Origin: Escherichia coli
Lineage (GTDB): Bacteria > Pseudomonadota > Gammaproteobacteria > Enterobacterales > Enterobacteriaceae
Assembly: GCF_003991155.1 (NCBI RefSeq)
Contig: NZ_CP031293.1
DNA length: 64,000 bases
Strand: one strand, 5' to 3'
Numbering within the stretch: position 1 is the stretch's first letter; every line of letters starts with the position of its first letter. This document shows positions 1 through 36,272 of this stretch, piece after piece. The position numbers and the translations under genes were made by a program. Below the pieces are notes generated by a model that worked only from the letters and a program-made list of their open reading frames with translations, searched no databases and was not told where the DNA came from.

Positions 1-1
1 A

Positions 2-572: not shown

Positions 573-607
573 TAACTGAACTTAATTTTATAAATTAAGT
601 TCAGTTA
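573..607. terminator. Near-perfect 16-bp-arm inverted repeat between convergent hicB-like gene and nikR; possible bidirectional terminator
   Basis: taactgaacttaattt / aaattaagttcagtta arms read directly from sequence; followed by T-rich tract on + strand. Confidence 0.4.
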
Positions 608-638
608 ATATCTTTTCTTTCCTCGTTTTAGAAATAAC

Positions 639-3441
<2,803 letters not shown>

Positions 3442-3445
<4 letters not shown>

Positions 3446-5960: not shown

Positions 5961-5998
5961 GGTAACCCCAATGGATTAAAATAGATGGCGGAAATAAG

Positions 5999-6026
5999 TA
6001 TGACGATTTTAAGTATTCGTCATACT
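5999..6026. promoter_or_regulatory. NikR operator (GTATGA-N16-TCATAC) in nikA promoter
   Basis: gtatgacgattttaagtattcgtcatac read directly upstream of nikA; matches the established NikR operator half-site spacing. Confidence 0.7.
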
Positions 6027-6070
6027 GATTACCTGTTCTGGATCAATAGATGGGCAGTCGGGTGGGCGGA

Positions 6071-6658: not shown

Positions 6659-6712
6659 ATCAGGGCCAACGTTTAATGGAAAATGAAAGTGCGTATCGTA
6701 ACACTTGTCGCC

Positions 6713-7762: not shown

Positions 7763-7893
7763 TGGGGCTTCCTTGTGACTTTTTGTATTAAGTGTAGCGG
7801 GAGTCACGCCAGCAATATTCTGATTCTTACTGCTGATTTTCACGTCAGCACGTGGTAAAAATGAAACACTGTTGTAAAAATGTGGTGATCCTC

Positions 7894-9111
7894 ATGCCCG
7901 AACCCGTAGCCGAACCCGCGCTAAACGGATTGCGCCTGAATTTGCGCATTGTCTCCATTGTCATGTTTAACTTCGCCAGCTACCTCACCATCGGGTTGCC
8001 GCTCGCTGTATTACCGGGCTATGTCCATGATGTGATGGGCTTTAGCGCTTTTTGGGCAGGATTGGTTATCAGCCTGCAATATTTCGCCACCTTGCTGAGC
8101 CGCCCTCATGCCGGACGTTACGCCGATTTGCTGGGACCCAAAAAGATTGTCGTCTTTGGTTTATGCGGCTGCTTTTTGAGCGGTTTGGGGTATCTGACGG
8201 CAGGATTAACCGCCAGTCTGCCCGTCATCAGCCTGTTATTACTGTGCCTGGGGCGCGTGATCCTTGGGATTGGGCAAAGTTTTGCCGGAACGGGATCGAC
8301 CCTATGGGGCGTTGGCGTGGTTGGTTCGCTGCATATCGGGCGGGTGATTTCGTGGAACGGCATTGTCACTTACGGGGCGATGGCGATGGGTGCGCCGTTA
8401 GGTGTCGTGTTTTATCACTGGGGCGGCTTGCAGGCGTTAGCGTTAATCATTATGGGCGTGGCGCTGGTGGCCATTTTGTTGGCGATCCCGCGTCCGACGG
8501 TAAAAGCCAGTAAAGGCAAACCGCTGCCGTTTCGTGCGGTGCTTGGGCGCGTCTGGCTGTACGGTATGGCGCTGGCACTGGCTTCCGCCGGATTTGGCGT
8601 TATCGCCACCTTTATCACGCTGTTTTATGACGCTAAAGGTTGGGACGGTGCGGCTTTCGCGCTGACGCTGTTTAGCTGTGCGTTTGTCGGTACGCGTTTG
8701 TTATTTCCTAACGGCATTAACCGTATCGGCGGCTTAAACGTGGCGATGATTTGCTTTAGCGTTGAGATAATCGGCCTGCTACTGGTTGGCGTGGCGACTA
8801 TGCCGTGGATGGCGAAAATCGGCGTCTTACTCGCGGGGGCGGGGTTTTCGCTGGTGTTCCCGGCATTGGGCGTAGTGGCGGTAAAAGCGGTTCCGCAGCA
8901 AAATCAGGGGGCGGCGCTGGCAACTTACACCGTATTTATGGATTTATCGCTTGGCGTGACCGGACCACTGGCTGGGCTGGTGATGAGTTGGGCGGGCGTC
9001 CCGGTGATTTATCTGGCGGCGGCGGGACTGGTCGCAATCGCGTTATTACTGACGTGGCGATTAAAAAAACGGCCTCCGGTGGAAATACCTGAGGCCATCT
9101 CATCATCTTAA
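7894..9111 (+). CDS. yhhS: MFS transporter YhhS
   Basis: ORF track 7852..9111; start moved to ATG at 7894 (MPEPVAEP...) giving 405 aa; 12-TM MFS-like. Confidence 0.88.
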   Translation: MPEPVAEPALNGLRLNLRIVSIVMFNFASYLTIGLPLAVLPGYVHDVMGFSAFWAGLVISLQYFATLLSRPHAGRYADLLGPKKIVVFGLCGCFLSGLGYLTAGLTASLPVISLLLLCLGRVILGIGQSFAGTGSTLWGVGVVGSLHIGRVISWNGIVTYGAMAMGAPLGVVFYHWGGLQALALIIMGVALVAILLAIPRPTVKASKGKPLPFRAVLGRVWLYGMALALASAGFGVIATFITLFYDAKGWDGAAFALTLFSCAFVGTRLLFPNGINRIGGLNVAMICFSVEIIGLLLVGVATMPWMAKIGVLLAGAGFSLVFPALGVVAVKAVPQQNQGAALATYTVFMDLSLGVTGPLAGLVMSWAGVPVIYLAAAGLVAIALLLTWRLKKRPPVEIPEAISSS

Positions 9112-9114
9112 AAC

Positions 9115-9672
9115 TTACTGAATAACCAGCGTATTAATGATGTTTTCTGCGGTGGTCTGTGCTTTTTGCTGATCGTCAGCGGGCAGCGTAATTTGCATGG
9201 TTAGCAGTTGATTACCCACGTTACCCAGAATAACGGAAGAGTACGCCGTCTGGCCTTTCGCGGAGATAATGCTGTCTAACTGCTGCATTTTGTGACCTTT
9301 CAGCTCAATGGCTTTATTGGTTACCACTTGCAGCTGCGGATCGCGGCTACGTTGCTGATCTTCCAGGCGCTTCGCCAGCACCGCCAGATCTTCTTTCGGA
9401 TCATCGCCCATGATGACGATGACTGCTTTCTGCCCGGTGGCGTCGGACCAGACATGCATGTTATTAGCCTGCGTTCCCAGCTTACCGCTCTGGTCGGTCA
9501 TATCCGCTGGCAGCGAGAAACTTAACTTGCCATCAAGCAGGTTGACGGGATTCCCGGTAGCGTTACTTTCCGCGACCGAACCCTGCGCCGTAGCGTTAGT
9601 GTCTTTATCATCACAGGCCGCAAGCCCCATAACCAGCAGGCCAATTCCGACATATTTAACCAGATTGCGCAT
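9115..9672 (-). CDS. dcrB: Periplasmic lipoprotein DcrB
   Basis: ORF track 9115..9726; start moved to [20 protein letters not shown] (lipobox) giving 185 aa. Confidence 0.88.
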
Positions 9673-9744
9673 TGAATTCTTCCTTTCGATAAACGGCCAT
9701 AACGGCTCATTCATCCATCTTATCACAACTCTGATAACGAACCT

Positions 9745-10410
9745 TTAACTCGCCTGCAAAGCGTTGATTTCGGATTTATCTGCCAGTCTTTTCAACAGCA
9801 TATTGAGTAATACGCCATACATTGGCAGGAAGAAAACGATACTGATTAACACTTTGAAACAGTAATCGACCAGCGCGATTTCCATCCAGTGTTCAGCCAT
9901 AAAGGCATCCGGGCTACGCCAGAAGGCAATGAAGAAGAAGGCCAGCGTGTCGCTGACGTTACCAAACAGGGTGGAAGCCGTCGGTGCCAGCCACCAGTGA
10001 CGACTCTGACGCAGGCGGTTAAAAACGTGCACGTCGAGGATCTGCCCCAGCGCGTAGGCCATGAAACTGGCGGTGGCGATACGGGCGACAAACAGGTTGA
10101 AGTGGGCGAGCGCGCCGAATCCTTGCCATGACCCCATATAAAACAGCGATGAGATGATGTAGGAGATCAGCAATGCGGGGATCATTACCGCAAAGATGAT
10201 GCGACGAGCCAGCGGTGCGCCAAAAATACGCACAGTCAGGTCGGTAGCAAGGAAAATAAACGGAAAGCTAAACGCGCCCCAGGTGGTATGGAAACCAAAA
10301 ATGGATACGGGAAGCTGAACCAGATAGTTACTGGAGGTGATCACCAGAAGATGAAATAACGATAACCAGAACAACGCCTTATAGCGTTGAGTTTGCGAGA
10401 AAACGTTCAT
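9745..10410 (-). CDS. yhhQ: Queuosine-precursor transporter family inner membrane protein YhhQ
   Basis: ORF track 221 aa; polytopic membrane protein; synteny. Confidence 0.88.
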   Translation of the reverse strand: MNVFSQTQRYKALFWLSLFHLLVITSSNYLVQLPVSIFGFHTTWGAFSFPFIFLATDLTVRIFGAPLARRIIFAVMIPALLISYIISSLFYMGSWQGFGALAHFNLFVARIATASFMAYALGQILDVHVFNRLRQSRHWWLAPTASTLFGNVSDTLAFFFIAFWRSPDAFMAEHWMEIALVDYCFKVLISIVFFLPMYGVLLNMLLKRLADKSEINALQAS

Positions 10411-10630
10411 ATTGTACCTTTTTGATTAACCATTGGGGTGAGGGAACCCAATACGTACGACACGTCTGTTACCTTAACATAATAACGTGCTGACCCTTTT
10501 TTCGAGCCGCCGCATGATACTGCTTTACGTTAACAATGCAATGGTTAATTTTCACGCAATCGTTAACCTGGTTTGCTTACGGACTCACAGGGCGTAAACT
10601 AGCGCCGTTTTTTTATGTGATGAGAAGAAA

Positions 10631-10876
10631 ATGACCGATCTCTTTTCCAGCCCTGACCACACACTCGACGCACTTGGCCTGCGCTGCCCGGAACCAGTAA
10701 TGATGGTGCGCAAAACAGTGCGCAATATGCAGCCAGGTGAAACGTTGCTGATTATTGCTGACGATCCGGCGACGACACGCGATATTCCTGGGTTTTGTAC
10801 CTTTATGGAACACGAACTGGTTGCGAAAGAGACGGATGGACTGCCTTATCGTTATTTGATTCGCAAATCGGGGTAA
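10631..10876 (+). CDS. tusA: Sulfur carrier protein TusA
   Basis: ORF track 81 aa; conserved CPxP motif (LRCPEPVM). Confidence 0.95.
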
Positions 10877-10929
10877 GGTGGATCAGGCTAGCGGACCGAT
10901 CGCGCTCAATTTTGCGGCTTGCAACCGGT

Positions 10930-11070
10930 TTGTAGGACGGATAAAAAGTTCAAGCTGCATCTGGCGATACGGTGCGCAATGCCTGATGCGACGCTGTCGC
11001 GTCTTATCATGCCTACGAGTTCGATGCCCTGTGTAGGCCAGATAAGGCGTTTACGCCGCATCCGGCACGC
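10930..11070. repeat. BIME / REP element cluster
   Basis: REP-type palindromic units gcctgatgcgacgctgtcgcgtcttatcatgcctac and tgtaggccagataaggcgtttacgccgcatccggca read from sequence. Confidence 0.7.
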
Positions 11071-11090
11071 AAACGTAATGGAATGCACAA

Positions 11091-11399
11091 ATGGATTATT
11101 TAATTCCAGTTTGTCTGGCATTGCTGGGATTGCTCGCGATCTTCACCCCCAATTGGCTGATCCCTGTTTTTATCGTCGTGGGGGGATGGCTGGGGGTACT
11201 TGCCTGGGGTTGGCTCTGGCTAATGATTTTTTTACCTTTACTTAACGGTGTCGGGCTTGCTTATGCCCTGTGGTTGATGTTCAAAAGGCCATCCATAGCA
11301 TCCCGCCTGGTTGCTGCATGCTGTGTTATCTCCGTCATTCTGATGTTAGCGCTTTATTATGCTTTCCTGACTATGCCGCCGTTCCCGCCTCAGCACTAA
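11091..11399 (+). CDS. Hypothetical small Trp-rich membrane protein (about 3 TM segments)
   Basis: ORF track 102 aa in the convergent tusA/zntA gap, just downstream of the BIME; strongly hydrophobic, coding-like codon usage by eye; weak RBS. Not a gene I recognise. Confidence 0.35.
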   Translation: MDYLIPVCLALLGLLAIFTPNWLIPVFIVVGGWLGVLAWGWLWLMIFLPLLNGVGLAYALWLMFKRPSIASRLVAACCVISVILMLALYYAFLTMPPFPPQH

Positions 11400-11431
11400 G
11401 CCTGATAGCCAGAGGCTATCAGGCAACACTT

Positions 11432-13630
11432 TTACTTCCTGCGCAACAATCTTAACGCATTCGCCGTCACCAGCACCGTCGCACCCGTATCTGCCAGCAC
11501 CGCCAGCCATAGCCCGGTCATTCCTAACAGTGTGGTGACGAGGAAAACGCCTTTCAGCCCCAGCGCAATGGTGATGTTCTGGCGGATATTGGCGTGAGTG
11601 GCGCGTGCCAGTTCAATCATTTGCACCAGACCGCGCAGGTGGTTATGGGTTAATGCTGCATCGGCGGTTTCCAGCGCCACGTCTGTGCCACTGCCCATTG
11701 CAATCCCGATGGCGGCAGCTTTCATCGCTGGCGCGTCGTTAATACCATCACCGACCATCGCCAGCGGCGCATGTTGATTCAGCTCGGTCACCGCTTTGAC
11801 TTTATCTTCCGGCAACAGGCCCGCTTTAAATTCCAGCCCCAACTCCCCGGCAATTGCCGCCGCGGCGCGTGGATTATCGCCGGTGAGGATCACTCCTTTA
11901 ACCCCCAGCGCGTTCAGTTCACTGATAGCAGTTGCAGCATCGGCGCGCAGGGTATCCTGCAACGCAATGACACCCAGCACGTCATCATTACGTACTACCA
12001 GCACTACCGTTTGCCCGGCGCTTTCCAGTTCATTAATCAAACCAGCAAATGCATCAGCAGGATGTTTTCCGGCAGCGCATATCAACACGCGCTCACCGTT
12101 AACCTGCGCTTCAATGCCAGACCCGACCAGCGCCCGCTGTGATTGGGCGGTGGGAATGGCGAGTTCAGCAACCTGTGCTTCGCGCACAATGGCTTGTGCC
12201 AGTGGATGCGTCGCGCCTTGCTCGACCGCCGCCGCCAGTGTCAGCAGTTCAGATTCACTAATACCCGTTGCCGGATGAATCGCGGTAACGCGCGGTTTAC
12301 CGACGGTCAGCGTACCGGTTTTATCAAACGCCACCTGGGTAACACGACCCAGCTGCTCCAGCGCCGCGCCGCCTTTAATCAACGCCCCACGACGCGCTGC
12401 TGCCGCCAGCCCGGAGGTAATCGCCGCGGGCGTGGAGATAACTAACGCACACGGGCAACCAATCAGCAGCAGCGTCAGCCCTTTATAAATCCACTCTTGC
12501 CAGCTGGCGGCAAACAGCAGCGGCGGCACCAGCGTTACCAGCAGGGCGACGGCCATAATCGCTGGCGTATAAATACGGCTGAAGCGGTCGATAAACCGCT
12601 CAATGGGCGCGCGGCGCTCTTCGGCTTCTTCGATCAGTTTCAGAATCCGGTCAATGGCGCTGGCACCCGGTTCTGACAGCACTTCCAGCGTTACCAGACG
12701 GTCTACGCTGGTGGCTCCTGCAGGAACTTTATCGCCCGTTGCGCGCTCCACAGGAATGGATTCGCCGGTCAGGGCGCTTTCATCAAAACTGGCAAACGGT
12801 GAGAGCAGTTTACCGTCGGCAGGCAAACGCCCACCTGCGGCGACTTCAATCACATCGCCAGGGCGCAGGCTGTTAATCGCCACCTCTTCACGCTCACCGT
12901 TACGCAGACGCGTGGCGGTTTCCGGTTTCAGCGCCATTAACGCGCTAACGCCCTGACGCGCGCGGCTGGCGGCCCAGCCTTCCAGTCGTTCACCAATCAA
13001 AAACAGCAGCAACACCATCGCAGCTTCAGCCGTTGCGCCAATAAACAGCGCACCAATAGCGGCTACGCTCATTAACGTTTCAATGGCGAAGTAGCTGCCG
13101 GATTTGATCAGCCGTAATGCCTGACGAGCAATCGGGTACAGCCCAACCAGCGTGGTCGCGATAAACGCCAGTTGCCCGAACGGATGATTGAACTGCTCCA
13201 GACCCCAGCTGATTGCCATCATCACGATTAGCGTAATCAGCGGCAGATTCTCTTTCAGGCGTGATGCTTGTGGTTCGTCGGTAGCCTGTTCATCGCGCAG
13301 GGAATAGCCCGCTTTTTGCACCGCAGATTCAACTTGTGCACGGATGTCATTGTCGGCATCCACCACCAGTTTTTCGGTGGCGAACAACACCTGTACCTGA
13401 TTCACGCCTGCAAGCTGGCGCACGGCATTTTCTACCTTGCGCGCACAGGCGGCGCAGTCCATGCCGCTGACTTTCCAGCTATAGCGGGTGCCGGAGACGT
13501 TTTCAGAGAGCGTTGGCGTGCTGGAACATGCGCCGTCGCAGCAACAGTCGTTGGTGTTCTGTACCGTAGTTAGCGGTTTGAACGCAGCAAAGTGAGGGGC
13601 TTTCTTGCCGTGATTGTCAGGAGTCGACAT
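11432..13630 (-). CDS. zntA: Zn/Cd/Pb-exporting P-type ATPase ZntA
   Basis: ORF track 732 aa; N-terminal GMDCAAC metal-binding motif, CPC transmembrane motif, DKTGTLT phosphorylation site. Confidence 0.95.
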   Translation of the reverse strand: MSTPDNHGKKAPHFAAFKPLTTVQNTNDCCCDGACSSTPTLSENVSGTRYSWKVSGMDCAACARKVENAVRQLAGVNQVQVLFATEKLVVDADNDIRAQVESAVQKAGYSLRDEQATDEPQASRLKENLPLITLIVMMAISWGLEQFNHPFGQLAFIATTLVGLYPIARQALRLIKSGSYFAIETLMSVAAIGALFIGATAEAAMVLLLFLIGERLEGWAASRARQGVSALMALKPETATRLRNGEREEVAINSLRPGDVIEVAAGGRLPADGKLLSPFASFDESALTGESIPVERATGDKVPAGATSVDRLVTLEVLSEPGASAIDRILKLIEEAEERRAPIERFIDRFSRIYTPAIMAVALLVTLVPPLLFAASWQEWIYKGLTLLLIGCPCALVISTPAAITSGLAAAARRGALIKGGAALEQLGRVTQVAFDKTGTLTVGKPRVTAIHPATGISESELLTLAAAVEQGATHPLAQAIVREAQVAELAIPTAQSQRALVGSGIEAQVNGERVLICAAGKHPADAFAGLINELESAGQTVVLVVRNDDVLGVIALQDTLRADAATAISELNALGVKGVILTGDNPRAAAAIAGELGLEFKAGLLPEDKVKAVTELNQHAPLAMVGDGINDAPAMKAAAIGIAMGSGTDVALETADAALTHNHLRGLVQMIELARATHANIRQNITIALGLKGVFLVTTLLGMTGLWLAVLADTGATVLVTANALRLLRRK

Positions 13631-13703
13631 GGCATCCTCCGGTTAAGTTTTTTCTCATTAACCGAAGGATACACTCTGGAGTCGACTCCAGAGTCAAGTT
13701 TTA

Positions 13704-14330
13704 TCAGAGATACAGCGAGCGGACGATGAGGAAATGACCGGCAAAGTAGCAGGCCGCAGCAATCGCGTTATCTGCCCGGAAGCGGCGGCGATAGTGACTA
13801 CCCAGCCAGACAAAGTTACTGATAAATAGCAACGAAGCGCCGACAAACGCAGAGAGCGCCGGAGCGGTCGGACGGAAGAACCACAGTTCACCTGCCAGCC
13901 ACACCATCACCAGCGTCATGCCGATAAACGTGCAGATAGGCCAACGATACTCTTCCAGCCGCGTCCAGATAATCGCCAGTAACAGCGCACCCAGAACCAG
14001 CAACACCAGTGGCAGAGGCCAGAAGAAAGAGAGCGTCATCTGACTGGCGAAATAGATGGTGTACAGCAGGTGCGAGAGGAAAAACGCGCCGATGGCGTAC
14101 ATCAGACGTTGACGTGGCAACAGGGTTAGCGCATCGCCCAGCAGTGAGGCGCACAGTCCCGCCAGCACCAGATAGCTAATGGCGTCGAACATCGGCGCTT
14201 GCCAGGCCAGCAACAGCAGGAGAAGAAGGGTTAATGGTTTAAATACCCAGCGTTGCCAGGTTGGCCCACGATACGATGCATCCACAGATAGCCATGCGGA
14301 AAGACAGACAGCGATAAACGACCAAAGCAT
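13704..14330 (-). CDS. yhhN: Inner membrane protein YhhN
   Basis: ORF track 208 aa polytopic membrane protein; synteny. Confidence 0.88.
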
Positions 14331-14470
14331 CTTAGTTCCTTGAATTCGTTATTTTTTCGTAAGCGGAATGCCTACGGTCTTGCTTCCAGTTTAGTGGCGA
14401 GGGTGGACGGATGACAACACCATAACTGGCAGGGTATGCTTATTTCCGCATTTTCCGATGAGGGATAAAG

Positions 14471-14830
14471 ATGAGTAAACCACCTCTTTTCTTTATTGTT
14501 ATCATTGGCTTAATCATCGTCGCCGCATCGTTTCGTTTTATGCAACAACGACGGGAAAAAGCTGATAATGATATGGCACCGCTCCAGCAAAAGCTGGTGG
14601 TGGTGAGCAACAAGCGGGAAAAACCGATTAACGATCGCCGTTCGCGCCAGCAGGAAGTGACTCCGGCAGGCACCAGTATGCGCTATGAGGCAAGCTTCAA
14701 ACCGCAAAGCGGAGGAATGGAGCAGACGTTTCGCCTCGACGCCCAGCAGTACCACGCCCTGACAGTGGGCGATAAAGGTACGCTGAGCTATAAAGGAACG
14801 CGCTTTGTCAGCTTTGTTGGCGAACAATAA
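14471..14830 (+). CDS. yhhM: DUF2500-family protein YhhM
   Basis: ORF track 119 aa with N-terminal TM helix; synteny. Confidence 0.85.
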   Translation: MSKPPLFFIVIIGLIIVAASFRFMQQRREKADNDMAPLQQKLVVVSNKREKPINDRRSRQQEVTPAGTSMRYEASFKPQSGGMEQTFRLDAQQYHALTVGDKGTLSYKGTRFVSFVGEQ

Positions 14831-14832
14831 GG

Positions 14833-15102
14833 TTATTTTTTAACTTTAAATTTCTTCTGCCAGACCAGCAGTTCAAACACGCCGAAAAGGAAAATGCGCA
14901 CCTTTTCGGCGGTGGTCATCTGCGGGCCATCTTTCGGCAAAGTGGATTTCAATAGCGCCAGCTGCATACCATGCATCAGCACGGTAAAAATCAGCGCCAC
15001 GTTAACAAAAATATTCAGCGGACGTGGGAAGGGATGCACCAGGTTGAGGATTAAAAATCCCCAAACGCAGAGCATTAACAAACGTCCAATATTAATCAAC
15101 AT
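14833..15102 (-). CDS. yhhL: Small membrane protein YhhL (DUF1145)
   Basis: ORF track 14833..15225; start moved to internal Met (MLINIGRLL...) giving 89 aa; stop of rsmD overlaps this start. Confidence 0.78.
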   Translation of the reverse strand: MLINIGRLLMLCVWGFLILNLVHPFPRPLNIFVNVALIFTVLMHGMQLALLKSTLPKDGPQMTTAEKVRIFLFGVFELLVWQKKFKVKK

Positions 15103-15688
15103 CACTTTCTCCTTGTGCTTCGCGTCGATACAGCCGATAAGCCACCTGACCCGCCACTTTTTCCCGATGTAATGACCAGTTCGCCGGAACAGTGGGCAGA
15201 CCGTTTTCGACTTCGCTTTCGACATAAATCAGGGCTTCGTCAGCCAGCCAGCCGTTATCTTCCAGTAAATTTATCGTCTCTTCTAACAATCCACGGCGGA
15301 ACGGTGGATCGACAAACACGATATTATGCGGTGTGCCTTTTTGCGCCAGGAATGACATCGCGTTGCTGTTCACCACGCGTGCATTGCCTGCTTTTAGTGT
15401 CGCCAGATTCTTAATTAACTGCTGAGAAACCACGCGATCCATCTCAATCAACGTGGCCCCCGCAGCGTAGCGCGATAACGCTTCCAGCCCCAGCGCGCCG
15501 CTCCCGGCGAAGCAATCCAGACATTGGGCGTCAACAATGACCGGAGCCAGCCAGTTAAACAACGTTTCGCGTACGCGGTCGGTGGTGGGGCGCAGACCTG
15601 GACTATCAGGAACCGGGAGTTTACGGCCTCGCCACTGCCCGCCAATAATGCGGATTTGGCCGCTGCCGGAATGATTCGGTTTTTTCAT
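15092..15688 (-). CDS. rsmD: 16S rRNA m2G966 methyltransferase RsmD
   Basis: ORF track 198 aa; DPPF motif (VDPPF) typical of N6/N2 methyltransferases; synteny next to ftsY. Confidence 0.9.
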   Translation of the reverse strand: MKKPNHSGSGQIRIIGGQWRGRKLPVPDSPGLRPTTDRVRETLFNWLAPVIVDAQCLDCFAGSGALGLEALSRYAAGATLIEMDRVVSQQLIKNLATLKAGNARVVNSNAMSFLAQKGTPHNIVFVDPPFRRGLLEETINLLEDNGWLADEALIYVESEVENGLPTVPANWSLHREKVAGQVAYRLYRREAQGESDVD

Positions 15689-15837
15689 GATAAATTGCTC
15701 AATCCGCCAGATAACACATACTTGCAGGCGGTGATGTGAATTAAGTTAAGTGATAGACTATTTCATCATTTTTTTAGCTGCTATGTACATAGCGTTAACG
15801 CTGTGCCATGAAGCAACAGCGAGGAGTGTAGTCGCAA

Positions 15838-17325
15838 ATGGCGAAAGAAAAAAAACGTGGCTTTTTTTCCTGGCTGGGCTTTGGTCAAAAAGAGCAGACC
15901 CCGGAAAAAGAGACAGAAGTTCAGAATGAACAACCGGTTGTAGAAGAAATCGTTCAGGCGCAAGAGCCTGTGAAGGCTTCTGAACAAGCCGTTGAAGAGC
16001 AGCCGCAGGCGCATACTGAGGCCGAGGCGGAAACTTTTGCTGCCGACGTTGTGGAAGTCACTGAACAGGTTGCTGAAAGTGAAAAAGCGCAGCCTGAAGC
16101 GGAAGTCGTTGCACAGCCGGAACTGGTCGCAGAAGAAACGCCGGAGCCAGTGGCTATCGAGCGTGAAGAACTGCCGTTGCCGGAAGACGTCAACGCCGAA
16201 GATGTTTCGCCAGAAGAGTGGCAGGCCGAAGCGGAAACCGTAGAGATTGTCGAAGCGGCGGAAGAAGAAGCGGCTAAAGAAGAAATCACCGACGAAGAGC
16301 TGGAAGCACAGGCGCTGGCTGCCGAAGAGGCGGTGATAGTGGTTTCTCCGGCAGAAGAAGAGCAGCCGGTGGAAGAAATCGCTCAGGAGCAGGAAAAACC
16401 GACCAAAGAAGGTTTCTTCGCGCGCCTGAAACGCAGCCTGTTAAAAACCAAAGAAAATCTCGGTTCCGGATTTATCAGCCTGTTCCGCGGTAAAAAAATC
16501 GACGATGATCTGTTTGAAGAGCTGGAAGAACAGCTGTTGATCGCCGATGTGGGCGTGGAAACCACACGTAAAATTATCACCAATCTGACGGAAGGCGCAT
16601 CCCGCAAGCAGCTTCGTGATGCCGAGGCGCTCTATGGCCTGCTGAAAGAAGAGATGGGCGAGATTCTGGCGAAAGTCGATGAGCCGCTGAATGTTGAAGG
16701 TAAAACGCCGTTCGTGATCCTGATGGTGGGCGTCAACGGTGTGGGTAAAACCACGACGATTGGTAAGCTGGCGCGTCAGTTTGAGCAGCAGGGTAAATCG
16801 GTGATGCTGGCGGCAGGCGATACTTTCCGTGCGGCAGCGGTTGAACAGCTTCAGGTCTGGGGTCAGCGCAACAATATTCCGGTGATTGCCCAGCATACCG
16901 GTGCGGATTCCGCTTCTGTTATCTTCGACGCCATTCAGGCCGCTAAAGCGCGTAACATCGACGTCCTGATTGCCGATACCGCCGGACGCCTGCAAAACAA
17001 ATCGCACCTGATGGAAGAGTTGAAGAAAATCGTCCGCGTGATGAAGAAACTCGACGTTGAAGCTCCGCATGAAGTTATGCTGACTATTGATGCCAGCACC
17101 GGGCAGAATGCGGTAAGCCAGGCCAAACTGTTCCACGAAGCCGTTGGCTTAACCGGCATCACGCTAACGAAACTGGACGGCACGGCGAAAGGCGGGGTAA
17201 TTTTCTCGGTGGCTGACCAGTTTGGTATCCCTATCCGCTACATTGGTGTCGGCGAACGTATTGAGGATTTGCGTCCGTTTAAGGCGGACGACTTTATAGA
17301 GGCACTTTTTGCCCGAGAGGATTAA
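15838..17325 (+). CDS. ftsY: Signal recognition particle receptor FtsY
   Basis: ORF track 495 aa; long acidic N-terminal domain, NG domain with GVNGVGKTTT and DTAGR motifs. Confidence 0.95.
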   Translation: MAKEKKRGFFSWLGFGQKEQTPEKETEVQNEQPVVEEIVQAQEPVKASEQAVEEQPQAHTEAEAETFAADVVEVTEQVAESEKAQPEAEVVAQPELVAEETPEPVAIEREELPLPEDVNAEDVSPEEWQAEAETVEIVEAAEEEAAKEEITDEELEAQALAAEEAVIVVSPAEEEQPVEEIAQEQEKPTKEGFFARLKRSLLKTKENLGSGFISLFRGKKIDDDLFEELEEQLLIADVGVETTRKIITNLTEGASRKQLRDAEALYGLLKEEMGEILAKVDEPLNVEGKTPFVILMVGVNGVGKTTTIGKLARQFEQQGKSVMLAAGDTFRAAAVEQLQVWGQRNNIPVIAQHTGADSASVIFDAIQAAKARNIDVLIADTAGRLQNKSHLMEELKKIVRVMKKLDVEAPHEVMLTIDASTGQNAVSQAKLFHEAVGLTGITLTKLDGTAKGGVIFSVADQFGIPIRYIGVGERIEDLRPFKADDFIEALFARED

Positions 17326-17327
17326 CA

Positions 17328-17996
17328 ATGATTCGCTTTGAACATGTCAGCAAGGCTTATCTCGGTGGGAGACAGGCGCTGCAGGGCGTTACGTTCCATA
17401 TGCAGCCGGGTGAGATGGCGTTTCTGACCGGTCATTCCGGCGCAGGGAAAAGTACCCTCCTGAAGCTGATCTGTGGGATTGAGCGGCCCAGCGCCGGGAA
17501 AATCTGGTTTAGCGGCCATGACATCACGCGTCTGAAAAACCGTGAAGTTCCGTTTCTGCGCCGCCAGATTGGCATGATTTTCCAGGATCACCATCTACTG
17601 ATGGACCGTACTGTCTACGATAATGTGGCGATCCCGCTGATTATCGCCGGTGCCAGCGGTGACGATATTCGTCGCCGGGTGTCGGCGGCACTGGATAAAG
17701 TCGGGCTACTGGACAAAGCGAAGAACTTTCCTATTCAGCTTTCCGGCGGTGAACAACAACGTGTTGGCATTGCCCGCGCGGTGGTGAACAAGCCTGCGGT
17801 ACTGCTGGCGGATGAACCGACCGGTAACCTGGACGACGCGTTGTCGGAAGGCATTTTACGTCTGTTTGAAGAGTTTAACCGCGTTGGGGTAACCGTATTG
17901 ATGGCAACGCACGACATCAACCTGATCTCGCGGCGTTCCTATCGCATGCTCACCCTGAGCGATGGTCACTTGCATGGAGGCGTGGGCCATGAATAA
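17328..17996 (+). CDS. ftsE: Cell division ABC ATPase FtsE
   Basis: ORF track 222 aa; Walker [10 protein letters not shown], signature LSGGEQQR. Confidence 0.95.
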
Positions 17997-19047
17997 GCGC
18001 GATGCAATCAATCATATTCGGCAGTTTGGCGGGCGTCTGGATCGCTTCCGTAAATCGGTCGGCGGCTCTGGCGACGGCGGTCGTAACGCGCCAAAACGGG
18101 CGAAATCCTCGCCAAAACCGGTAAATCGCAAAACCAACGTTTTCAACGAACAGGTGCGCTATGCCTTCCACGGCGCATTGCAGGATCTGAAAAGCAAACC
18201 GTTCGCCACGTTTTTAACGGTGATGGTTATCGCCATCTCCCTGACGCTGCCCAGCGTCTGTTATATGGTGTACAAAAACGTTAACCAGGCGGCGACGCAA
18301 TATTATCCGTCACCGCAAATCACTGTTTATCTGCAAAAAACGCTGGACGATGACGCCGCTGCGGGCGTGGTGGCACAGTTGCAGGCCGAGCAAGGCGTGG
18401 AGAAAGTGAATTATCTTTCTCGTGAAGACGCACTGGGCGAGTTCCGTAACTGGTCTGGTTTTGGTGGTGCGCTGGATATGCTGGAAGAAAACCCGCTTCC
18501 GGCAGTGGCGGTGGTGATCCCGAAACTCGATTTTCAGGGGACGGAATCACTGAATACGCTGCGTGATCGTATCACCCAGATCAACGGCATTGACGAAGTG
18601 CGGATGGATGACAGCTGGTTTGCCCGTCTGGCGGCGTTAACCGGGCTGGTCGGGCGCGTTTCCGCGATGATCGGCGTGTTGATGGTGGCAGCAGTGTTCC
18701 TCGTCATCGGTAACAGTGTGCGCCTGAGTATCTTTGCTCGCCGTGACTCCATTAACGTGCAGAAACTGATTGGTGCGACGGATGGTTTCATCCTGCGCCC
18801 GTTCCTATACGGAGGCGCATTGCTGGGATTTTCTGGCGCATTGTTGTCATTAATTTTGTCAGAAATTCTGGTGCTGCGATTGTCATCGGCGGTTGCGGAA
18901 GTGGCGCAGGTTTTCGGAACGAAGTTTGATATCAATGGTTTATCGTTCGATGAATGCCTGCTATTGCTGCTGGTATGCTCGATGATTGGCTGGGTGGCAG
19001 CGTGGCTTGCCACGGTACAACATTTACGCCACTTTACGCCTGAATAA
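17989..19047 (+). CDS. ftsX: Cell division ABC permease-like protein FtsX
   Basis: ORF track 17962..19047; start moved to ATG at 17989 ([12 protein letters not shown]), overlapping the ftsE stop; 352 aa. Confidence 0.93.
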
Positions 19048-19063
19048 TAAAAGCGTGTTATAC

Positions 19064-19099
19064 TCTTTCCCTGCAATGGGTTCCGTAGCAGGGAAAGAG
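19064..19099 (+). terminator. Perfect 12-bp-stem hairpin downstream of ftsX (no T-tract)
   Basis: ctctttccctgc ... gcagggaaagag read directly; lacks a following U-run so termination efficiency is uncertain. Confidence 0.4.
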
Positions 19100-19149
19100 A
19101 CCCCGTTGTCTCTTCCCGGTATTTCATCTCTATGTCACATTTTGTGCGT

Positions 19150-19291
19150 AATTTATTCACAGCGTTGCATTGAACTTGTGGATAAAATCACTGTCTGATA
19201 AAACAGTGAATGATAACCTCGTTGCTCTTAAGCTCTGGCACAGTTGTTGCTACCACTGAAGCGCCAGAAGATATCGATTGAGAGGATTTGA
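19150..19291 (+). promoter_or_regulatory. rpoH upstream promoter region (multiple promoters expected)
   Basis: Established knowledge that rpoH is driven by several promoters upstream of the ORF; exact elements not resolved here. Confidence 0.45.
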
Positions 19292-20146
19292 ATGACTGAC
19301 AAAATGCAAAGTTTAGCTTTAGCCCCAGTTGGCAACCTGGATTCCTACATCCGGGCAGCTAACGCGTGGCCGATGTTGTCGGCTGACGAGGAGCGGGCGC
19401 TGGCTGAAAAGCTGCATTACCATGGCGATCTGGAAGCAGCTAAAACGCTGATCCTGTCTCACCTGCGGTTTGTTGTTCATATTGCTCGTAATTATGCGGG
19501 CTATGGCCTGCCACAGGCGGATTTGATTCAGGAAGGTAACATCGGCCTGATGAAAGCAGTGCGCCGTTTTAACCCGGAAGTGGGTGTGCGCCTGGTCTCC
19601 TTCGCCGTTCACTGGATCAAAGCAGAGATCCACGAATACGTTCTGCGCAACTGGCGTATCGTCAAAGTTGCGACCACCAAAGCGCAGCGCAAACTGTTCT
19701 TCAACCTGCGTAAAACCAAGCAGCGTCTGGGCTGGTTTAACCAGGATGAAGTCGAAATGGTGGCCCGTGAACTGGGTGTAACCAGCAAAGACGTACGTGA
19801 GATGGAATCACGTATGGCGGCACAGGACATGACCTTTGACCTGTCTTCCGACGACGATTCCGACAGCCAGCCGATGGCTCCGGTGCTCTATCTGCAGGAT
19901 AAATCATCTAACTTTGCCGACGGCATCGAAGATGATAACTGGGAAGAGCAGGCGGCAAACCGTCTGACCGACGCGATGCAAGGTCTGGACGAGCGTAGCC
20001 AGGATATCATCCGCGCGCGCTGGCTGGACGAAGACAACAAGTCCACGTTGCAGGAACTGGCTGACCGTTACGGCGTTTCCGCTGAGCGTGTGCGCCAGCT
20101 GGAAAAGAACGCGATGAAAAAATTGCGCGCTGCCATTGAAGCGTAA
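19292..20146 (+). CDS. rpoH: RNA polymerase sigma-32 factor RpoH
   Basis: ORF track 284 aa; sigma-70 family regions 2 and 4, RpoH box-like segment. Confidence 0.97.
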
Positions 20147-20162
20147 TTTCCGCTATTAAGCA

Positions 20163-20200
20163 GAGAACCCTGGATGAGAGTCCGGGGTTTTTGTTTTTTG
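20163..20200 (+). terminator. Rho-independent terminator after rpoH
   Basis: GC-rich imperfect hairpin (ccctgga...tccgggg) followed by tttttgttttttg. Confidence 0.6.
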
Positions 20201-20417
20201 GGCCTCTACAATAATCAGTTTCCCCCTCCGGCAAAACGCCAATCCCCACGCAGATTGTTAATAAACTGTCAAAATAGCTATTCCAATATCATAAAAATGG
20301 GGTATGTTTTAGCAGAGTATGCTGCTAAAGCACGGGTAGCTACGTATAAAACGAAATAAAGTGCTGCACAACAACATCACAACACACGTAATAACCAGAA
20401 GAGTGGGGATTCTCAGG

Positions 20418-21521
20418 ATGAACATAAAGGGTAAAGCGTTACTGGCAGGATGTATCGCGCTGGCATTCAGCAATATGGCTCTGGCAGAAGATATTAAAGT
20501 CGCGGTCGTGGGCGCAATGTCCGGTCCGGTAGCCCAGTACGGTGACCAGGAGTTTACTGGTGCTGAGCAGGCGGTTGCGGATATCAATGCTAAAGGCGGC
20601 ATTAAAGGCAACAAACTGCAAATCGTGAAATATGACGATGCCTGTGACCCGAAACAGGCGGTTGCGGTGGCGAACAAAGTCGTTAACGACGGCATTAAAT
20701 ACGTGATTGGTCACCTCTGCTCTTCATCAACGCAGCCAGCGTCTGACATCTACGAAGACGAAGGCATTTTAATGATCACCCCAGCGGCAACCGCACCAGA
20801 GCTGACCGCCCGTGGCTATCAGCTGATCCTGCGCACCACCGGCCTGGACTCCGACCAGGGGCCGACGGCGGCGAAATATATTCTTGAGAAAGTGAAACCG
20901 CAACGCATTGCTATCGTTCACGACAAACAGCAGTACGGCGAAGGTCTGGCGCGTGCAGTGCAGGACGGCCTGAAGAAAGGCAATGCTAACGTGGTGTTCT
21001 TTGATGGTATCACCGCTGGGGAAAAAGATTTCTCAACCCTGGTGGCGCGTCTGAAGAAAGAGAATATCGACTTCGTTTACTACGGTGGTTATCACCCGGA
21101 AATGGGGCAAATCCTGCGTCAGGCACGCGCGGCAGGGTTGAAAACTCAGTTTATGGGGCCGGAAGGTGTGGCTAACGTTTCGCTGTCTAACATTGCGGGC
21201 GAATCAGCGGAAGGGCTGCTGGTGACCAAGCCGAAGAACTACGATCAGGTTCCGGCGAACAAACCCATTGTTGATGCGATCAAAGCGAAAAAACAGGACC
21301 CAAGCGGCGCGTTCGTCTGGACCACCTACGCCGCGCTGCAATCTTTGCAAGCGGGGCTGAATCAGTCTGACGATCCGGCGGAGATCGCTAAATACCTGAA
21401 AGCGAACTCGGTTGATACGGTGATGGGGCCGCTTAGCTGGGATGAGAAAGGCGATCTGAAAGGCTTTGAGTTCGGTGTGTTTGACTGGCACGCCAACGGC
21501 ACGGCGACTGATGCGAAGTAA
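20418..21521 (+). CDS. livJ: Leu/Ile/Val-binding periplasmic protein LivJ
   Basis: ORF track 20361..21521; start moved to [11 protein letters not shown] giving 367 aa; paralog of downstream LivK. Confidence 0.95.
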
Positions 21522-21579
21522 TCATTAATCGGCAACTTTGGGTTGCCGCCAAATTGCTAATATCGAGTACGTTGCTTCA

Positions 21580-21682
<103 letters not shown>

Positions 21683-21720
21683 TTCTCGTTGGTCATCACT
21701 TTTGAAATCAAACTTGACGA

Positions 21721-22104
21721 TTAACGCTTCTCCCAGCCACCCTGTTGTGCCGTAAATCCCAGTGCTCGCATAAACGCCGTCATCACGCCGCGATCTTCCA
21801 CGCCAGCATCCGCCATCCACCAACATGAAACGCCAGGATTGTTACGCAAAACCTCTTCCAGCAGATATTGCCCCACACCGCGACGTCGGGTGACTTCCCG
21901 CACGCGTAGAGAATCCAGTGCCCCCTCGGTGCCGCTTAAGGTTACCCGCACGGCAGCGAGCAGGCGCTCGTTAAAACGCGCGGCGTAGATACGGTGGTTA
22001 TCGTCAACCTGTAAAGAGGAAGGGGAATACTCCGGCCAGATCTTTTGCAGGTCAATCCGGTCCTGGTCGCTAAAGTTTTCTAATCGAATGATGGTCAGCT
22101 TCAT
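21721..22104 (-). CDS. panM: PanD maturation factor PanM (GNAT fold)
   Basis: ORF track 127 aa; synteny between livJ and livK. Confidence 0.88.
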   Translation of the reverse strand: MKLTIIRLENFSDQDRIDLQKIWPEYSPSSLQVDDNHRIYAARFNERLLAAVRVTLSGTEGALDSLRVREVTRRRGVGQYLLEEVLRNNPGVSCWWMADAGVEDRGVMTAFMRALGFTAQQGGWEKR

Positions 22105-22527
22105 GGGGAACCCGTGTAAATCACAAAAGTGGAACCAGTGTAGCGAAATAATTTAATCGGAGGCTTTCTCTTTTTTATTTCTTTTGGCAGGTGATTAATT
22201 TTTTTTCAGCAATAATTACAAAGTTAAAACATTAGAGAATGAAAAATATCCAGCATAATCCCCTAAATGGTAGTGAATTATTCTGCCCTTTGTACCGTTA
22301 TTTTATGCTGACAACGGCGCTTTTTTCTGTTTATCTATCAATAAATTCAGAATATTATCTGTTCTTAATTGACTGAAAAATAGGGATTTTAATCGCTATC
22401 ATCACAAAATGCTGCGCTAAACCCTTAATCAGACAGGTAAAAACAGTGCAGTATAAAAAAAGAACAGTTTGATTTGTTAACACATAAAAACAAAGCAACA
22501 CAACATCACGAATGGGGATTTTTGACT

Positions 22528-23637
22528 ATGAAACGGAATGCGAAAACTATCATCGCAGGGATGATTGCACTGACAATTTCACACACCGCTATGGCTGACG
22601 ATATTAAAGTCGCCGTTGTCGGCGCGATGTCCGGCCCGATTGCCCAGTGGGGCGATATGGAATTTAACGGCGCGCGTCAGGCAATTAAAGACATTAATGC
22701 CAAAGGGGGAATTAAGGGCGATAAACTGGTTGGCGTGGAATATGACGACGCCTGCGACCCGAAACAAGCCGTTGCGGTCGCCAACAAAATCGTTAACGAC
22801 GGCATTAAATATGTTATTGGTCATCTGTGTTCCTCCTCTACCCAACCTGCATCAGATATCTATGAAGACGAAGGTATTCTGATGATCTCGCCGGGAGCGA
22901 CCAATCCGGAGCTGACCCAACGCGGTTATCAATACATCATGCGTACTGCCGGGCTGGACTCTTCCCAGGGGCCAACGGCGGCAAAATACATTCTTGAGAC
23001 GGTGAAGCCCCAGCGCATCGCCATCATTCACGACAAACAACAGTATGGCGAAGGACTGGCACGTTCGGTGCAGGACGGGCTGAAAGCGGCTAACGCCAAC
23101 GTCGTCTTCTTCGACGGCATTACCGCTGGAGAGAAAGATTTCTCCGCGCTGATCGCCCGCCTGAAAAAAGAAAACATCGACTTCGTTTACTACGGCGGTT
23201 ACTACCCGGAAATGGGGCAGATGCTGCGCCAGGCCCGTTCCGTTGGCCTGAAAACCCAGTTTATGGGGCCGGAAGGTGTGGGTAATGCGTCGTTGTCGAA
23301 TATTGCTGGCGATGCTGCCGAAGGCATGTTGGTCACTATGCCAAAACGCTATGACCAGGATCCGGCAAACCAGGGCATCGTTGATGCGCTGAAAGCAGAC
23401 AAGAAAGATCCATCCGGGCCATATGTCTGGATCACCTACGCGGCGGTGCAATCTCTGGCAACAGCCCTTGAGCGTATCGGCAGCGATGAGCCGCTGGCGC
23501 TGGTGAAAGATTTAAAAGCTAACGGTGCAAATACCGTGATTGGGCCGCTGAACTGGGATGAAAAAGGCGATCTTAAGGGATTTGATTTTGGTGTCTTCCA
23601 GTGGCACGCCGACGGTTCATCCACGGCAGCCAAGTGA
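22528..23637 (+). CDS. livK: Leucine-specific binding protein LivK
   Basis: ORF track 22474..23637; start moved to [11 protein letters not shown] giving 369 aa. Confidence 0.95.
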
Positions 23638-33144: not shown

Positions 33145-33263
33145 CGCGTATCCTCCTCTGAAGATATCCTTTAAGTTTACTCGCTTCCCGACAAAACGAT
33201 GATTAATTCAGAGTTATATACCAGGCTTAGCTGGGGTTGCCCCTTAATCTCTGGAGAATAACG

Positions 33264-35006
33264 ATGATAAAACCGACGTTTTTACGCCGGGTGGCCATTG
33301 CTGCTCTGCTCTCAGGAAGTTGTTTTAGCGCCGCCGCCGCGCCTCCTGCGCCGCCCGTCTCGTATGGTGTGGAGGAAGATGTCTTCCACCCGGTACGCGC
33401 GAAACAGGGAATGGTAGCGTCTGTGGACGCCACTGCCACTCAGGTGGGGGTGGATATTCTCAAGGAGGGCGGGAATGCCGTTGATGCCGCCGTGGCGGTG
33501 GGCTACGCGCTGGCGGTAACGCATCCGCAGGCAGGGAATCTGGGCGGTGGTGGTTTTATGTTAATCCGCTCGAAAAATGGCAATACCACGGCTATCGATT
33601 TCCGCGAAATGGCACCCGCCAAAGCGACCCGCGATATGTTCCTCGATGATCAGGGCAACCCGGACAGCAAAAAATCACTCACTTCGCATCTGGCTTCCGG
33701 CACACCGGGTACGGTAGCAGGTTTCTCGCTGGCGCTGGATAAATACGGCACCATGCCGCTGAACAAAGTCGTGCAGCCCGCGTTTAAACTGGCACGCGAT
33801 GGTTTTATCGTTAACGACGCGCTGGCTGACGATCTCAAAACCTACGGTAGCGAAGTGTTGCCGAATCACGAAAACAGTAAAGCTATCTTCTGGAAAGAGG
33901 GCGAGCCGCTGAAAAAGGGCGACACGCTGGTGCAGGCGAACCTGGCAAAGAGCCTGGAGATGATTGCTGAAAACGGCCCGGACGAATTCTATAAAGGCAC
34001 GATTGCGGAACAGATCGCCCAGGAGATGCAGAAAAACGGTGGCTTGATCACTAAAGAAGATTTAGCAGCCTATAAAGCGGTCGAACGTACTCCGATAAGC
34101 GGCGATTATCGCGGGTATCAGGTTTACTCCATGCCACCGCCATCCTCCGGCGGGATCCATATCGTACAAATCCTCAATATTCTGGAAAACTTCGATATGA
34201 AGAAATACGGCTTTGGCAGCGCCGATGCGATGCAAATCATGGCAGAAGCGGAGAAATACGCCTACGCCGACCGCTCGGAATATCTTGGCGACCCGGATTT
34301 TGTCAAAGTACCGTGGCAGGCGCTGACCAATAAAGCCTATGCCAAATCTATTGCCGATCAAATTGATATCAATAAAGCGAAGCCATCCAGCGAAATTCGC
34401 CCCGGCAAGCTTGCGCCTTATGAGAGTAATCAAACTACCCATTACTCAGTGGTGGATAAAGACGGCAACGCGGTGGCGGTGACCTATACGCTGAACACCA
34501 CCTTCGGGACGGGCATTGTCGCGGGCGAGAGCGGTATTCTGCTTAATAACCAGATGGATGATTTCTCCGCCAAACCGGGCGTACCGAACGTTTACGGGCT
34601 GGTGGGCGGTGATGCCAACGCGGTTGGGCCGAACAAACGCCCGCTGTCGTCGATGTCACCAACCATTGTGGTGAAAGACGGTAAAACCTGGCTGGTTACC
34701 GGTAGCCCTGGCGGGAGTCGGATTATTACCACCGTGCTGCAAATGGTGGTGAATAGCATCGATTATGGCATGAATGTCGCCGAAGCGACCAATGCACCGC
34801 GTTTCCACCATCAGTGGTTGCCGGACGAGCTGCGTGTCGAAAAAGGGTTTAGCCCGGATACGCTCAAGCTGCTGGAAGCAAAAGGTCAGAAAGTGGCGCT
34901 GAAAGAGGCGATGGGCAGTACACAAAGCATTATGGTTGGGCCGGACGGTGAGTTGTACGGCGCATCTGACCCGCGCTCGGTGGATGATTTAACGGCGGGG
35001 TATTAA
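33264..35006 (+). CDS. ggt: Gamma-glutamyltranspeptidase
   Basis: ORF track 33237..35006; start moved to MIKPTFLRR giving 580 aa; signal peptide; autoprocessing Thr region (...QTTHYSV...). Confidence 0.95.
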   Translation: MIKPTFLRRVAIAALLSGSCFSAAAAPPAPPVSYGVEEDVFHPVRAKQGMVASVDATATQVGVDILKEGGNAVDAAVAVGYALAVTHPQAGNLGGGGFMLIRSKNGNTTAIDFREMAPAKATRDMFLDDQGNPDSKKSLTSHLASGTPGTVAGFSLALDKYGTMPLNKVVQPAFKLARDGFIVNDALADDLKTYGSEVLPNHENSKAIFWKEGEPLKKGDTLVQANLAKSLEMIAENGPDEFYKGTIAEQIAQEMQKNGGLITKEDLAAYKAVERTPISGDYRGYQVYSMPPPSSGGIHIVQILNILENFDMKKYGFGSADAMQIMAEAEKYAYADRSEYLGDPDFVKVPWQALTNKAYAKSIADQIDINKAKPSSEIRPGKLAPYESNQTTHYSVVDKDGNAVAVTYTLNTTFGTGIVAGESGILLNNQMDDFSAKPGVPNVYGLVGGDANAVGPNKRPLSSMSPTIVVKDGKTWLVTGSPGGSRIITTVLQMVVNSIDYGMNVAEATNAPRFHHQWLPDELRVEKGFSPDTLKLLEAKGQKVALKEAMGSTQSIMVGPDGELYGASDPRSVDDLTAGY

Positions 35007-35043: not shown

Positions 35044-35328
35044 TCAGGGCAAGCCGAAGGTAGCCTTTTTTATTTCATAATCCTGTAGATATTCTTCCAG
35101 TGGCTTTGCCGTTCCCAGAGAATGAATTTCACCACTGCCTTTATCAATAATAAAAGGTGCGTTACCAGCTAAGCGCGCGGCCTCATCTCCAGATTCAAGA
35201 AATTATTGTGATTCGAAACAGAAATACCAGCCCTGGCTAAAACGTCCATGCAGAGTGATGACGACAGGGAGATCTGCATCATCAAGGTAATGGTTCGCTT
35301 TCGCGAATGCGTCGTGATAAGTAATCAT
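35044..35328 (-). pseudogene. yrhB: yrhB-like reading frame interrupted by in-frame TAA (41 aa N-terminal part plus 52 aa continuing frame)
   Basis: Hand translation of minus strand: MITYHDAFAKANHYLDDADLPVVITLHGRFSQGWYFCFESQ-stop(35203..35205)-FLESGDEAARLAGNAPFIIDKGSGEIHSLGTAKPLEEYLQDYEIKKATFGLP-stop(35044..35046). The continuous 94-codon frame matches my recollection of the length of K-12 YrhB. Confidence 0.55.
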
Positions 35329-35777
35329 AATTATAATAAATATTATTGTTGATCGTTATATTATTATTCTTGCGTTATACTTTGAGAAAAGACGCGTTCA
35401 TCTTCGTCAAAGATATTATTAAATGCTGGTTTTGAAAAAAGTTCATCGGGTAATATACAGTCACGAAATAAGTATCTGCTAATGTTTTGTGATTTCTTTT
35501 TCAGAACGTCGAACGGGATTTTCTTATTTAAGATATCAGAATCTTATGATTCGGGTGAAATTCTAACTAAATCAACATGTCACTAAAATCATCATAGCCA
35601 TTAGCTATTTCGGCTAAAATAGAGATTACATGTCTTCGGTCCATCTCACTTAAGGAGTGTAGTTCCGTTGTAAGTTTTTCCATAGCTTGCATTGCTAAGT
35701 TTCGAACAAGGAATTTTCTGCTGGTAATCTCTAAAAAGATGGCATGGTTTATAATGATTTTTGTTACCTTTTGATTA

Positions 35778-36272
35778 TTATGAACAACTGTCCATGATTT
35801 CGTTTAAGAATGAAGAGAAATCACTAAACGAACTGAATATATTTTCTGTGCCAATATTATCTCTAATTTCAAAAAAGTTATTTTTAATGTCATAAGTAAA
35901 TATTGAAATGCTATCATCCCCGATCACTAACCGTTCTTGTAGATCAGGGTTTATGAAATCATCATTATTTCTATAAAATTCATTTACGGCAAAAAGGTTT
36001 TTAACTGAAGGTTCTGGAATCGAGAGGCTGAATAATCGTAATCCATTAACTTCGAATCCATCCATTGCTCTTAAAAAAGTAAGATAATCAGGTTGATTAT
36101 TAAAGAGAATACTAACTTCATTACATAACTTCTCCAGGCAATTAGTTGGATTAGAATTAAATTTTATTTGGATTATACTTTCAATAAATGATTCCTTGAG
36201 CGGTGCTTCAAATGGATAGTCTAAATCATTCATCATTTTTTTTAATTTATTTATTTGGGTTTTAGTCATCAT
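35778..36272 (-). CDS. Putative immunity protein for the upstream Hcp-HNH effector (yrhA-type position)
   Basis: ORF track 164 aa, AT-rich, start overlaps effector stop (ATGA); position immediately downstream of a polymorphic toxin gene. No catalytic motif recognised. Confidence 0.55.
   Translation of the reverse strand: MMTKTQINKLKKMMNDLDYPFEAPLKESFIESIIQIKFNSNPTNCLEKLCNEVSILFNNQPDYLTFLRAMDGFEVNGLRLFSLSIPEPSVKNLFAVNEFYRNNDDFINPDLQERLVIGDDSISIFTYDIKNNFFEIRDNIGTENIFSSFSDFSSFLNEIMDSCS

Follow-up and report, generated by a model that had tools for sequence, protein, structure and literature searches.

The yrhB gene within the 64,000 nucleotide stretch of Escherichia coli DNA analysed here, which is referred to throughout as the window, is interrupted by an in-frame TAA at codon 42. 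At a probability of roughly 0.88, this is a lineage-fixed loss-of-function allele that was generated by one G>T transversion at window position 35205. The nonsense allele is already known, in that RefSeq labels the same allele as a pseudogene. Alone it carries little weight, as a further case of a small accessory gene turned into a pseudogene by a point mutation. A by-product of the analysis is more useful: judged from their gene neighbourhoods, the close homologues of YrhB appear to be the cognate immunity genes of Gln_amidase toxins.

The interrupted yrhB reading frame

The minus strand from 35328 to 35044 translates as MITYHDAFAKANHYLDDADLPVVITLHGRFSQGWYFCFESQ*FLESGDEAARLAGNAPFIIDKGSGEIHSLGTAKPLEEYLQDYEIKKATFGLP*, that is 41 codons, a TAA at 35205..35203, 52 further codons and the natural TGA. 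Retranslation reproduced exactly the coordinates, strand and codon counts of the original prediction, which had described 41 residues, a TAA and 52 more codons in the same minus-strand frame. The list of open reading frames also has a 41-codon ORF at 35203..35328. The features of the locus are as follows.

35044..35328, minus strand: yrhB pseudogene, a 94-codon frame broken at codon 42, identified from the translation, the RefSeq annotation "yrhB, pseudo, internal stop" and alignment to intact alleles
35203..35205, minus strand: TAA stop at codon 42, premature; GAA (Glu) is the ancestral codon, and the derived base at 35205 is a T on the minus strand
35206..35328, minus strand: residual 41-codon N-terminal ORF, covering predicted helix 1 and strands 1–2 and matching Imm35 profile positions 1–41 of 85 at 30 bits
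35047..35202, minus strand: 52 codons now untranslated, containing the LAGNAPFIIDKD..GEI core motif and 15 of the 21 invariant family columns
35044..35049, minus strand: natural end of yrhB, CCC TGA, read from the sequence

The CCC TGA motif, with yrhB named, is among the E. coli sequences that have elevated +1 frameshifting at the stop codon (PMC2790909). This frameshift-prone terminus has no relation to the TAA at codon 42.

Origin of the stop codon

The yrhB sequence was aligned with those of six genomes: 2016C-3878, GF131, E7-1N7, ST2747, GON1437, and K-12 MG1655. Which codon had been replaced was a question raised with the original prediction, and the alignment answers it, since GAA (Glu) is present in every aligned allele from outside the window's clade, while the clade member 2016C-3878 has TAA. 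The change from Glu42 (GAA) to TAA is a single G>T transversion at nucleotide 124 of the CDS, window position 35205, which is T here and G in the intact alleles. This base is the sole difference in yrhB between the window and the alleles of GF131 and E7-1N7, and the tract of identity around it extends for 602 bp in comparison with GF131 and for 1301 bp in comparison with E7-1N7. The region past the stop was said still to look like protein sequence, and this is borne out, the whole 285 nt being intact GF131 and E7-1N7 yrhB except for one base.

Glu42 is kept in at least 90% of 25 YrhB-family proteins, which come from Escherichia, Citrobacter, Pectobacterium, Yersinia, Pantoea, Serratia, Enterobacter, Erwinia, and Limnobaculum. 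This conservation, together with the GAA of the alleles outside the clade, indicates that GAA is ancestral and TAA derived.

The orthologue in K-12 MG1655 (b3446) likewise lies between yrhD and ggt and has the same frame of 94 codons; the DNA identity is 96%, with 12 of 285 nt separating K-12 from the intact yrhB of GF131. In contrast to the TAA of the window, K-12 has GAA at codon 42 and encodes a full protein, and there are also the differences S40A, Q41R, S46T, and G64D. The suggestion that the K-12 protein might itself end at this point does not hold, K-12 YrhB being 94 aa long with Glu at position 42. The yrhB pseudogene annotated by PGAP in strain 2016C-3878 (BEN53_RS21000) has the identical sequence and an "internal stop" flag, with no difference from the window.

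Distribution of the allele

A 501 bp query was matched at 100% identity by 49 complete E. coli genomes in RefSeq and at 99.8% by two more, the intact GF131 and E7-1N7. A 61-mer centred on the stop has an exact match in those 49 out of 5,426 complete E. coli genomes and in no others. When the 64 kb window was divided into three queries, the same 49 genomes were the top matches each time. Among these carriers, 41 are approximately 100% identical to the window and eight form a sister clade; strain 2016C-3878 is 100% identical to the window over all 64 kb. RefSeq (PGAP) marks yrhB as "pseudo; internal stop" in all three of the carriers that were opened, one of which is from the sister clade. The exact 41-aa product is called on 15 Logan contigs, which are assembled from raw public runs, and the intact ancestral protein on 177.

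The carriers span several continents; their hosts are humans, cattle, chickens, pigs, dogs, a cat, mink, sheep, and a wild bird, and others are from rivers and wastewater. Sequence type is documented for two of the 49, strains CREC-544 and AR13438, both published as ST457 (PMC5884925, PMC9860340, PMC10100771). The TAA allele is inherited by a coherent group of 49 genomes, made up of a main clone that includes the published ST457 strains and its sister clade. A single mutation, in an ancestor shared by main clone and sister clade, is the simplest history. The original prediction that the interruption is probably recent is supported by there being no second change in yrhB; against it, the allele is common to the main clone and the sister clade, the flanks of which are 0.1–0.6% apart. 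Position 35205 could serve as a one-SNP marker for the ST457-related clade.

Some structural differences are present among the carriers. In the left flank (1..22999), the eight sister-clade genomes have an insertion of approximately 5.7 kb compared to the window, and the annotation of this insertion includes an FGGY-family carbohydrate kinase and a PTS galactitol IIC subunit. In eight other genomes, the same flank differs in length by approximately 12 bases. The Hcp-HNH protein encoded near yrhB is WP_061092824.1 in strain 2016C-3878 and WP_000065918.1 in strains FDAARGOS_1268 and CE-O153H30, therefore there is at least one amino acid change in this toxin between sub-lineages that have the yrhB stop in common.

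Constraint on yrhB and possible selection for its loss

Pairwise pN/pS among five intact yrhB alleles is 0.10–0.32, which points to a gene ordinarily under constraint. At least 80% of the 501 bp query is covered in 3,794 of the 5,426 genomes. Public protein data hold many frameshifted or truncated E. coli YrhB variants, many of them singletons that may be assembly errors. One variant of 112 aa, with 65 cluster members, runs past the natural stop after a frameshift near an A-run. The gene is normally constrained but dispensable.

Fixation of the allele in a clade that occurs worldwide, with isolates from humans, livestock, pets, wildlife, and water, raises the question of whether the inactivation of yrhB was positively selected, or whether a dispensable orphan immunity gene decayed neutrally and was carried along by a successful clone. 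The gene is also gone or broken elsewhere, being absent from O157:H7 and present as many frameshifted variants in the public data, although many of these are singletons and could be assembly errors. As there was a single mutational event, fixation through selection cannot be told from drift or hitch-hiking, and the intact alleles show the purifying selection described above. Positive selection for the loss is therefore considered unlikely.

Effect of the stop codon on the protein

The intact allele matches the Imm35 family (Pfam PF15567) at 76.9 bits over residues 5–83, against a threshold of 27.5 bits. The truncated product scores 30 bits and aligns to profile positions 1–41 of 85 only. Fifteen of the 21 invariant columns of the family lie after the stop, among them the LAGNAPF-IDKD-GEI block. 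An AlphaFold2 model of YrhB has helices at residues 4–16, 41–46, and 77–91 and strands at 22–30, 33–40, 59–62, and 68–70. It has a mean pLDDT of 88.6 and is used with caution, as four of the five models were not confident. Following this model, which predicts an alpha/beta fold with four strands, the 41-aa fragment retains one helix and two of the strands.

The stop is in the context CAA TAA T, giving the tetranucleotide UAA-U, and a U at the +4 position is reported to lower read-through in E. coli (PMC5289835). A search for an in-frame restart after the stop found no ATG or GTG; there are only the near-cognate codons ATT, CTG, and ATA, and a TTG at codon 93. Re-initiation past the stop is considered improbable on the basis that there is no canonical in-frame start codon downstream. 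As about half of Imm35 and 15 of the 21 invariant positions are gone, with a UAA-U context and no canonical restart codon, it is likely that the truncated product is non-functional and that the 3' half of the gene is unexpressed. A scan around yrhB for promoters and terminators returned five promoter-like sites, where 3.3 are expected by chance, and no terminators. The locus has these features of a point-mutation pseudogene: a premature in-frame stop at a syntenic position, which is reproducible in independent assemblies and removes conserved parts of the protein.

The 41-residue peptide has kept the native start and the upstream region, and its Imm35 score is just over the threshold (30 versus 27.5 bits). 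It could therefore have retained or gained a function, as a small protein or a chaperone-like fragment. This is very unlikely given that the peptide would have only helix 1 and two strands of the predicted fold, and that the 15 invariant positions lost include the most conserved motif. The time and divergence involved are too small for a test of selection on the fragment.

Bypass of the stop by read-through, a suppressor tRNA or recoding, such that full-length YrhB is still made, would be in keeping with the 52 downstream codons being intact. This intactness is, on the other hand, what is expected from the youth of the mutation, with zero other changes over 602 bp. Although yrhB is cited for a recoding-prone sequence, this is only at the natural CCC TGA end. 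UAA is not a selenocysteine or pyrrolysine codon, the +4U reduces read-through and neither a slippery run nor a structure was noted there. The read-through or suppression context that had been proposed for inspection at the stop turned out to be an efficient termination context, with nothing there to support recoding. Programmed recoding of a UGA or UAG with a conserved element was also rejected, the codon being UAA and the aligned alleles outside the 49-genome clade having the sense codon GAA. Bypass is thus highly improbable.

The original prediction had left the choice between a nonsense allele, or pseudogene, which stands, and a sequencing or assembly error in one genome with GAA as the true codon, which is ruled out at 35205 by the population evidence and has a negligible chance of being correct: a single base is the typical size of an error and a neighbouring GAA haplotype exists, but the base is the same in 49 complete genomes that were sequenced independently, by different laboratories and from different hosts, countries, and years. 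Across 64 kb its presence follows a coherent clade, the change is a transversion with no homopolymer run around it, the 41-aa product recurs in the 15 independently assembled Logan contigs, and RefSeq records the internal stop.

The yhhY-ggt interval

The gene order in the window is yhhY-yhhZ-yrhA-yrhD-yrhB-ggt, with yrhB between yrhD and ggt as in K-12. The neighbours of yrhB are as follows.

35567..35692, minus strand: yrhD remnant, a 41-aa ORF closed by TAG; in K-12 this codon is TAT and the frame continues for 10 codons more (51 aa); the aligned GF131 sequence also has TAG
35778..36272, minus strand: yrhA, intact, matching the NCBIfam YrhA family (NF038335) at 127.7 bits; the yrhA start and the yhhZ stop share 4 nt
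[quoted passage not shown]
33264..35006, plus strand: ggt, the convergent downstream neighbour at the end of the variable islet, from RefSeq mapping (1743 nt) and the ORF list

Of seven genomes examined other than K-12, six have yrhD flagged by PGAP as "incomplete, missing C-terminus", and the seventh, SCEC020026, has no yrhD feature. This is either a stop-loss extension in K-12 or a nonsense allele in most strains.

The product of yhhZ/tssD matches Pfam T6SS_HCP at 42.4 bits and TIGR03344, with a weak sub-threshold match to HNH. [quoted passage not shown] The arrangement of the yhhZ/tssD fusion followed by the overlapping small gene yrhA resembles the Hcp-ET effector/immunity modules of the Enterobacteriaceae (Ma et al. 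2017, as reviewed in PMC6730261), as does a syntenic Citrobacter pair of Hcp-Gln_amidase and Imm35. Unlike the immunity gene of such a module, yrhB is not directly after the E. coli toxin, being approximately 450 bp beyond yrhA, and it would correspond to a different toxin specificity.

The content of the interval varies. Both the window and K-12 have Hcp-HNH, yrhA, yrhD, and yrhB, with an IS1 inserted in yrhA in K-12. In strain SCEC020026 the interval holds yrhB alone, in O157:H7 a DUF4225 gene without yrhB, and in Citrobacter portucalensis Hcp-Gln_amidase, Imm35, and an 83-aa gene. The yhhY-ggt interval is better read as a hypervariable, polymorphic islet of Hcp toxins and immunity proteins, with yrhB as an orphan immunity gene within it.

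At the edge of the islet, the longest ggt ORF in the window begins at a TTG at 33237 (33237..35006, plus strand) and would encode 589 aa. In GF131 and E7-1N7, ggt is 1746 nt and is far more diverged from the window than the adjoining islet. This difference in divergence suggests a recombination breakpoint near 34850–35000.

YrhB as a member of the Imm35 family

In K-12, yrhB is annotated as "putative heat shock chaperone". The chaperone label is traced to Ahn et al. 2012 (FEBS Lett 586:1044), where, as cited in PMC10723866, YrhB is reported to be heat-stable with chaperone-like activity, and it has been reused in chaperone screens. The description of YrhB as chaperone-like in the original prediction matches this annotation and this publication, but the family and gene neighbourhood point instead to an Imm35 immunity protein. 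In a search for membership of a chaperone family by sequence, Pfam gave Imm35 only and NCBIfam gave nothing; no solved structures related to YrhB by sequence were found. Imm35 was described as a family of immunity proteins in polymorphic toxin systems, tied to the papain-like toxin Tox-PL1 and to Ntox40, and a role as peptidase inhibitor has been suggested for it (Zhang et al. 2012, PMC3482391).

The intact ancestral allele is like other Imm35 members in matching the full domain. Its close homologues, which are 64–71% identical, are found directly after CdiA or Hcp toxins that end in a Gln_amidase domain, a papain-fold glutamine-deamidase of the Gln_amidase/Tox-PL1 type. In three Pectobacterium loci and two of Yersinia kristensenii, the gene for the homologue overlaps the stop codon of cdiA, and the CdiA domain order is TPS, Fil_haemagg_2, PT-VENN, DUF6862, and Gln_amidase (PF15644). 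In Citrobacter portucalensis, the homologue overlaps the stop of a 386-aa Hcp-Gln_amidase fusion located between yhhY and ggt, and this pair is therefore at the same chromosomal site as yrhB. The YhhZ of the window and the Citrobacter Hcp are 71% identical over residues 1–251 and then unrelated, with HNH in one and Gln_amidase in the other. Such an exchange of the C-terminal toxin domain is the classic pattern in polymorphic toxins.

The window differs from typical Imm35 loci in that the toxin of the islet is Hcp-HNH, with no Gln_amidase toxin directly upstream of yrhB, and in that its copy of the gene is cut to half a domain. No remnant of such a toxin was detected upstream of yrhB by tblastn with the C-terminus of the Citrobacter toxin, which gave nothing significant (E = 0.17). 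With no adjacent Gln_amidase toxin, yrhB in the window is an orphan member of Imm35, and from these comparisons the E. coli yrhB is most likely an orphan immunity gene beside the Hcp-HNH/YrhA module. Among the matches listed, Gln_amidase domains near to that of Citrobacter are found in Salmonella (in Hcp), Scandinavium, Erwinia, Pantoea, Enterobacter, Cronobacter, and Pseudomonas, and no E. coli is named among the matches listed in the search for this glutamine-deamidase domain. Since the homologues are beside Gln_amidase toxins, with one pair at the same site in Citrobacter, the K-12 label of "putative heat shock chaperone" is probably misleading.

A sequence of events can be proposed from these neighbourhoods. 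Intact YrhB would neutralise papain-fold glutamine-deamidase (Tox-PL1/Gln_amidase) toxins delivered by contact-dependent growth inhibition (CDI) or the T6SS. An HNH/YrhA cassette may have displaced the Gln_amidase end of an Hcp toxin, with yrhB being retained as an orphan immunity gene. The window's clade would then have inactivated the orphan through the change of Glu42 to a stop. If YrhB is an orphan immunity protein, its inactivation would leave the lineage without protection against Gln_amidase toxins, a toxin type of other Enterobacterales, and this loss would have come at no obvious cost to its spread. It is put forward only tentatively that YrhB acts mainly in orphan immunity against glutamine deamidases delivered by CDI or Hcp-ET, rather than as a chaperone, and that the ST457-related clade has lost this protection and forms, with the intact strains, a natural knockout and intact pair. 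If true, the ST457-related clade and GF131/E7-1N7, which are one base apart in yrhB, would be a natural test pair in the wild.

One of the sequences carrying a Gln_amidase/Imm35 pair, Pectobacterium CP140126.1, has further CdiA sequence upstream of this pair and of a Transposase_mut gene. At 300..6300 of the locus there are two tandem CdiA C-terminal fragments with PT-VENN, each overlapped at its 5' end by an antisense SymE_toxin gene, which has the appearance of an orphan CdiA-CT array.
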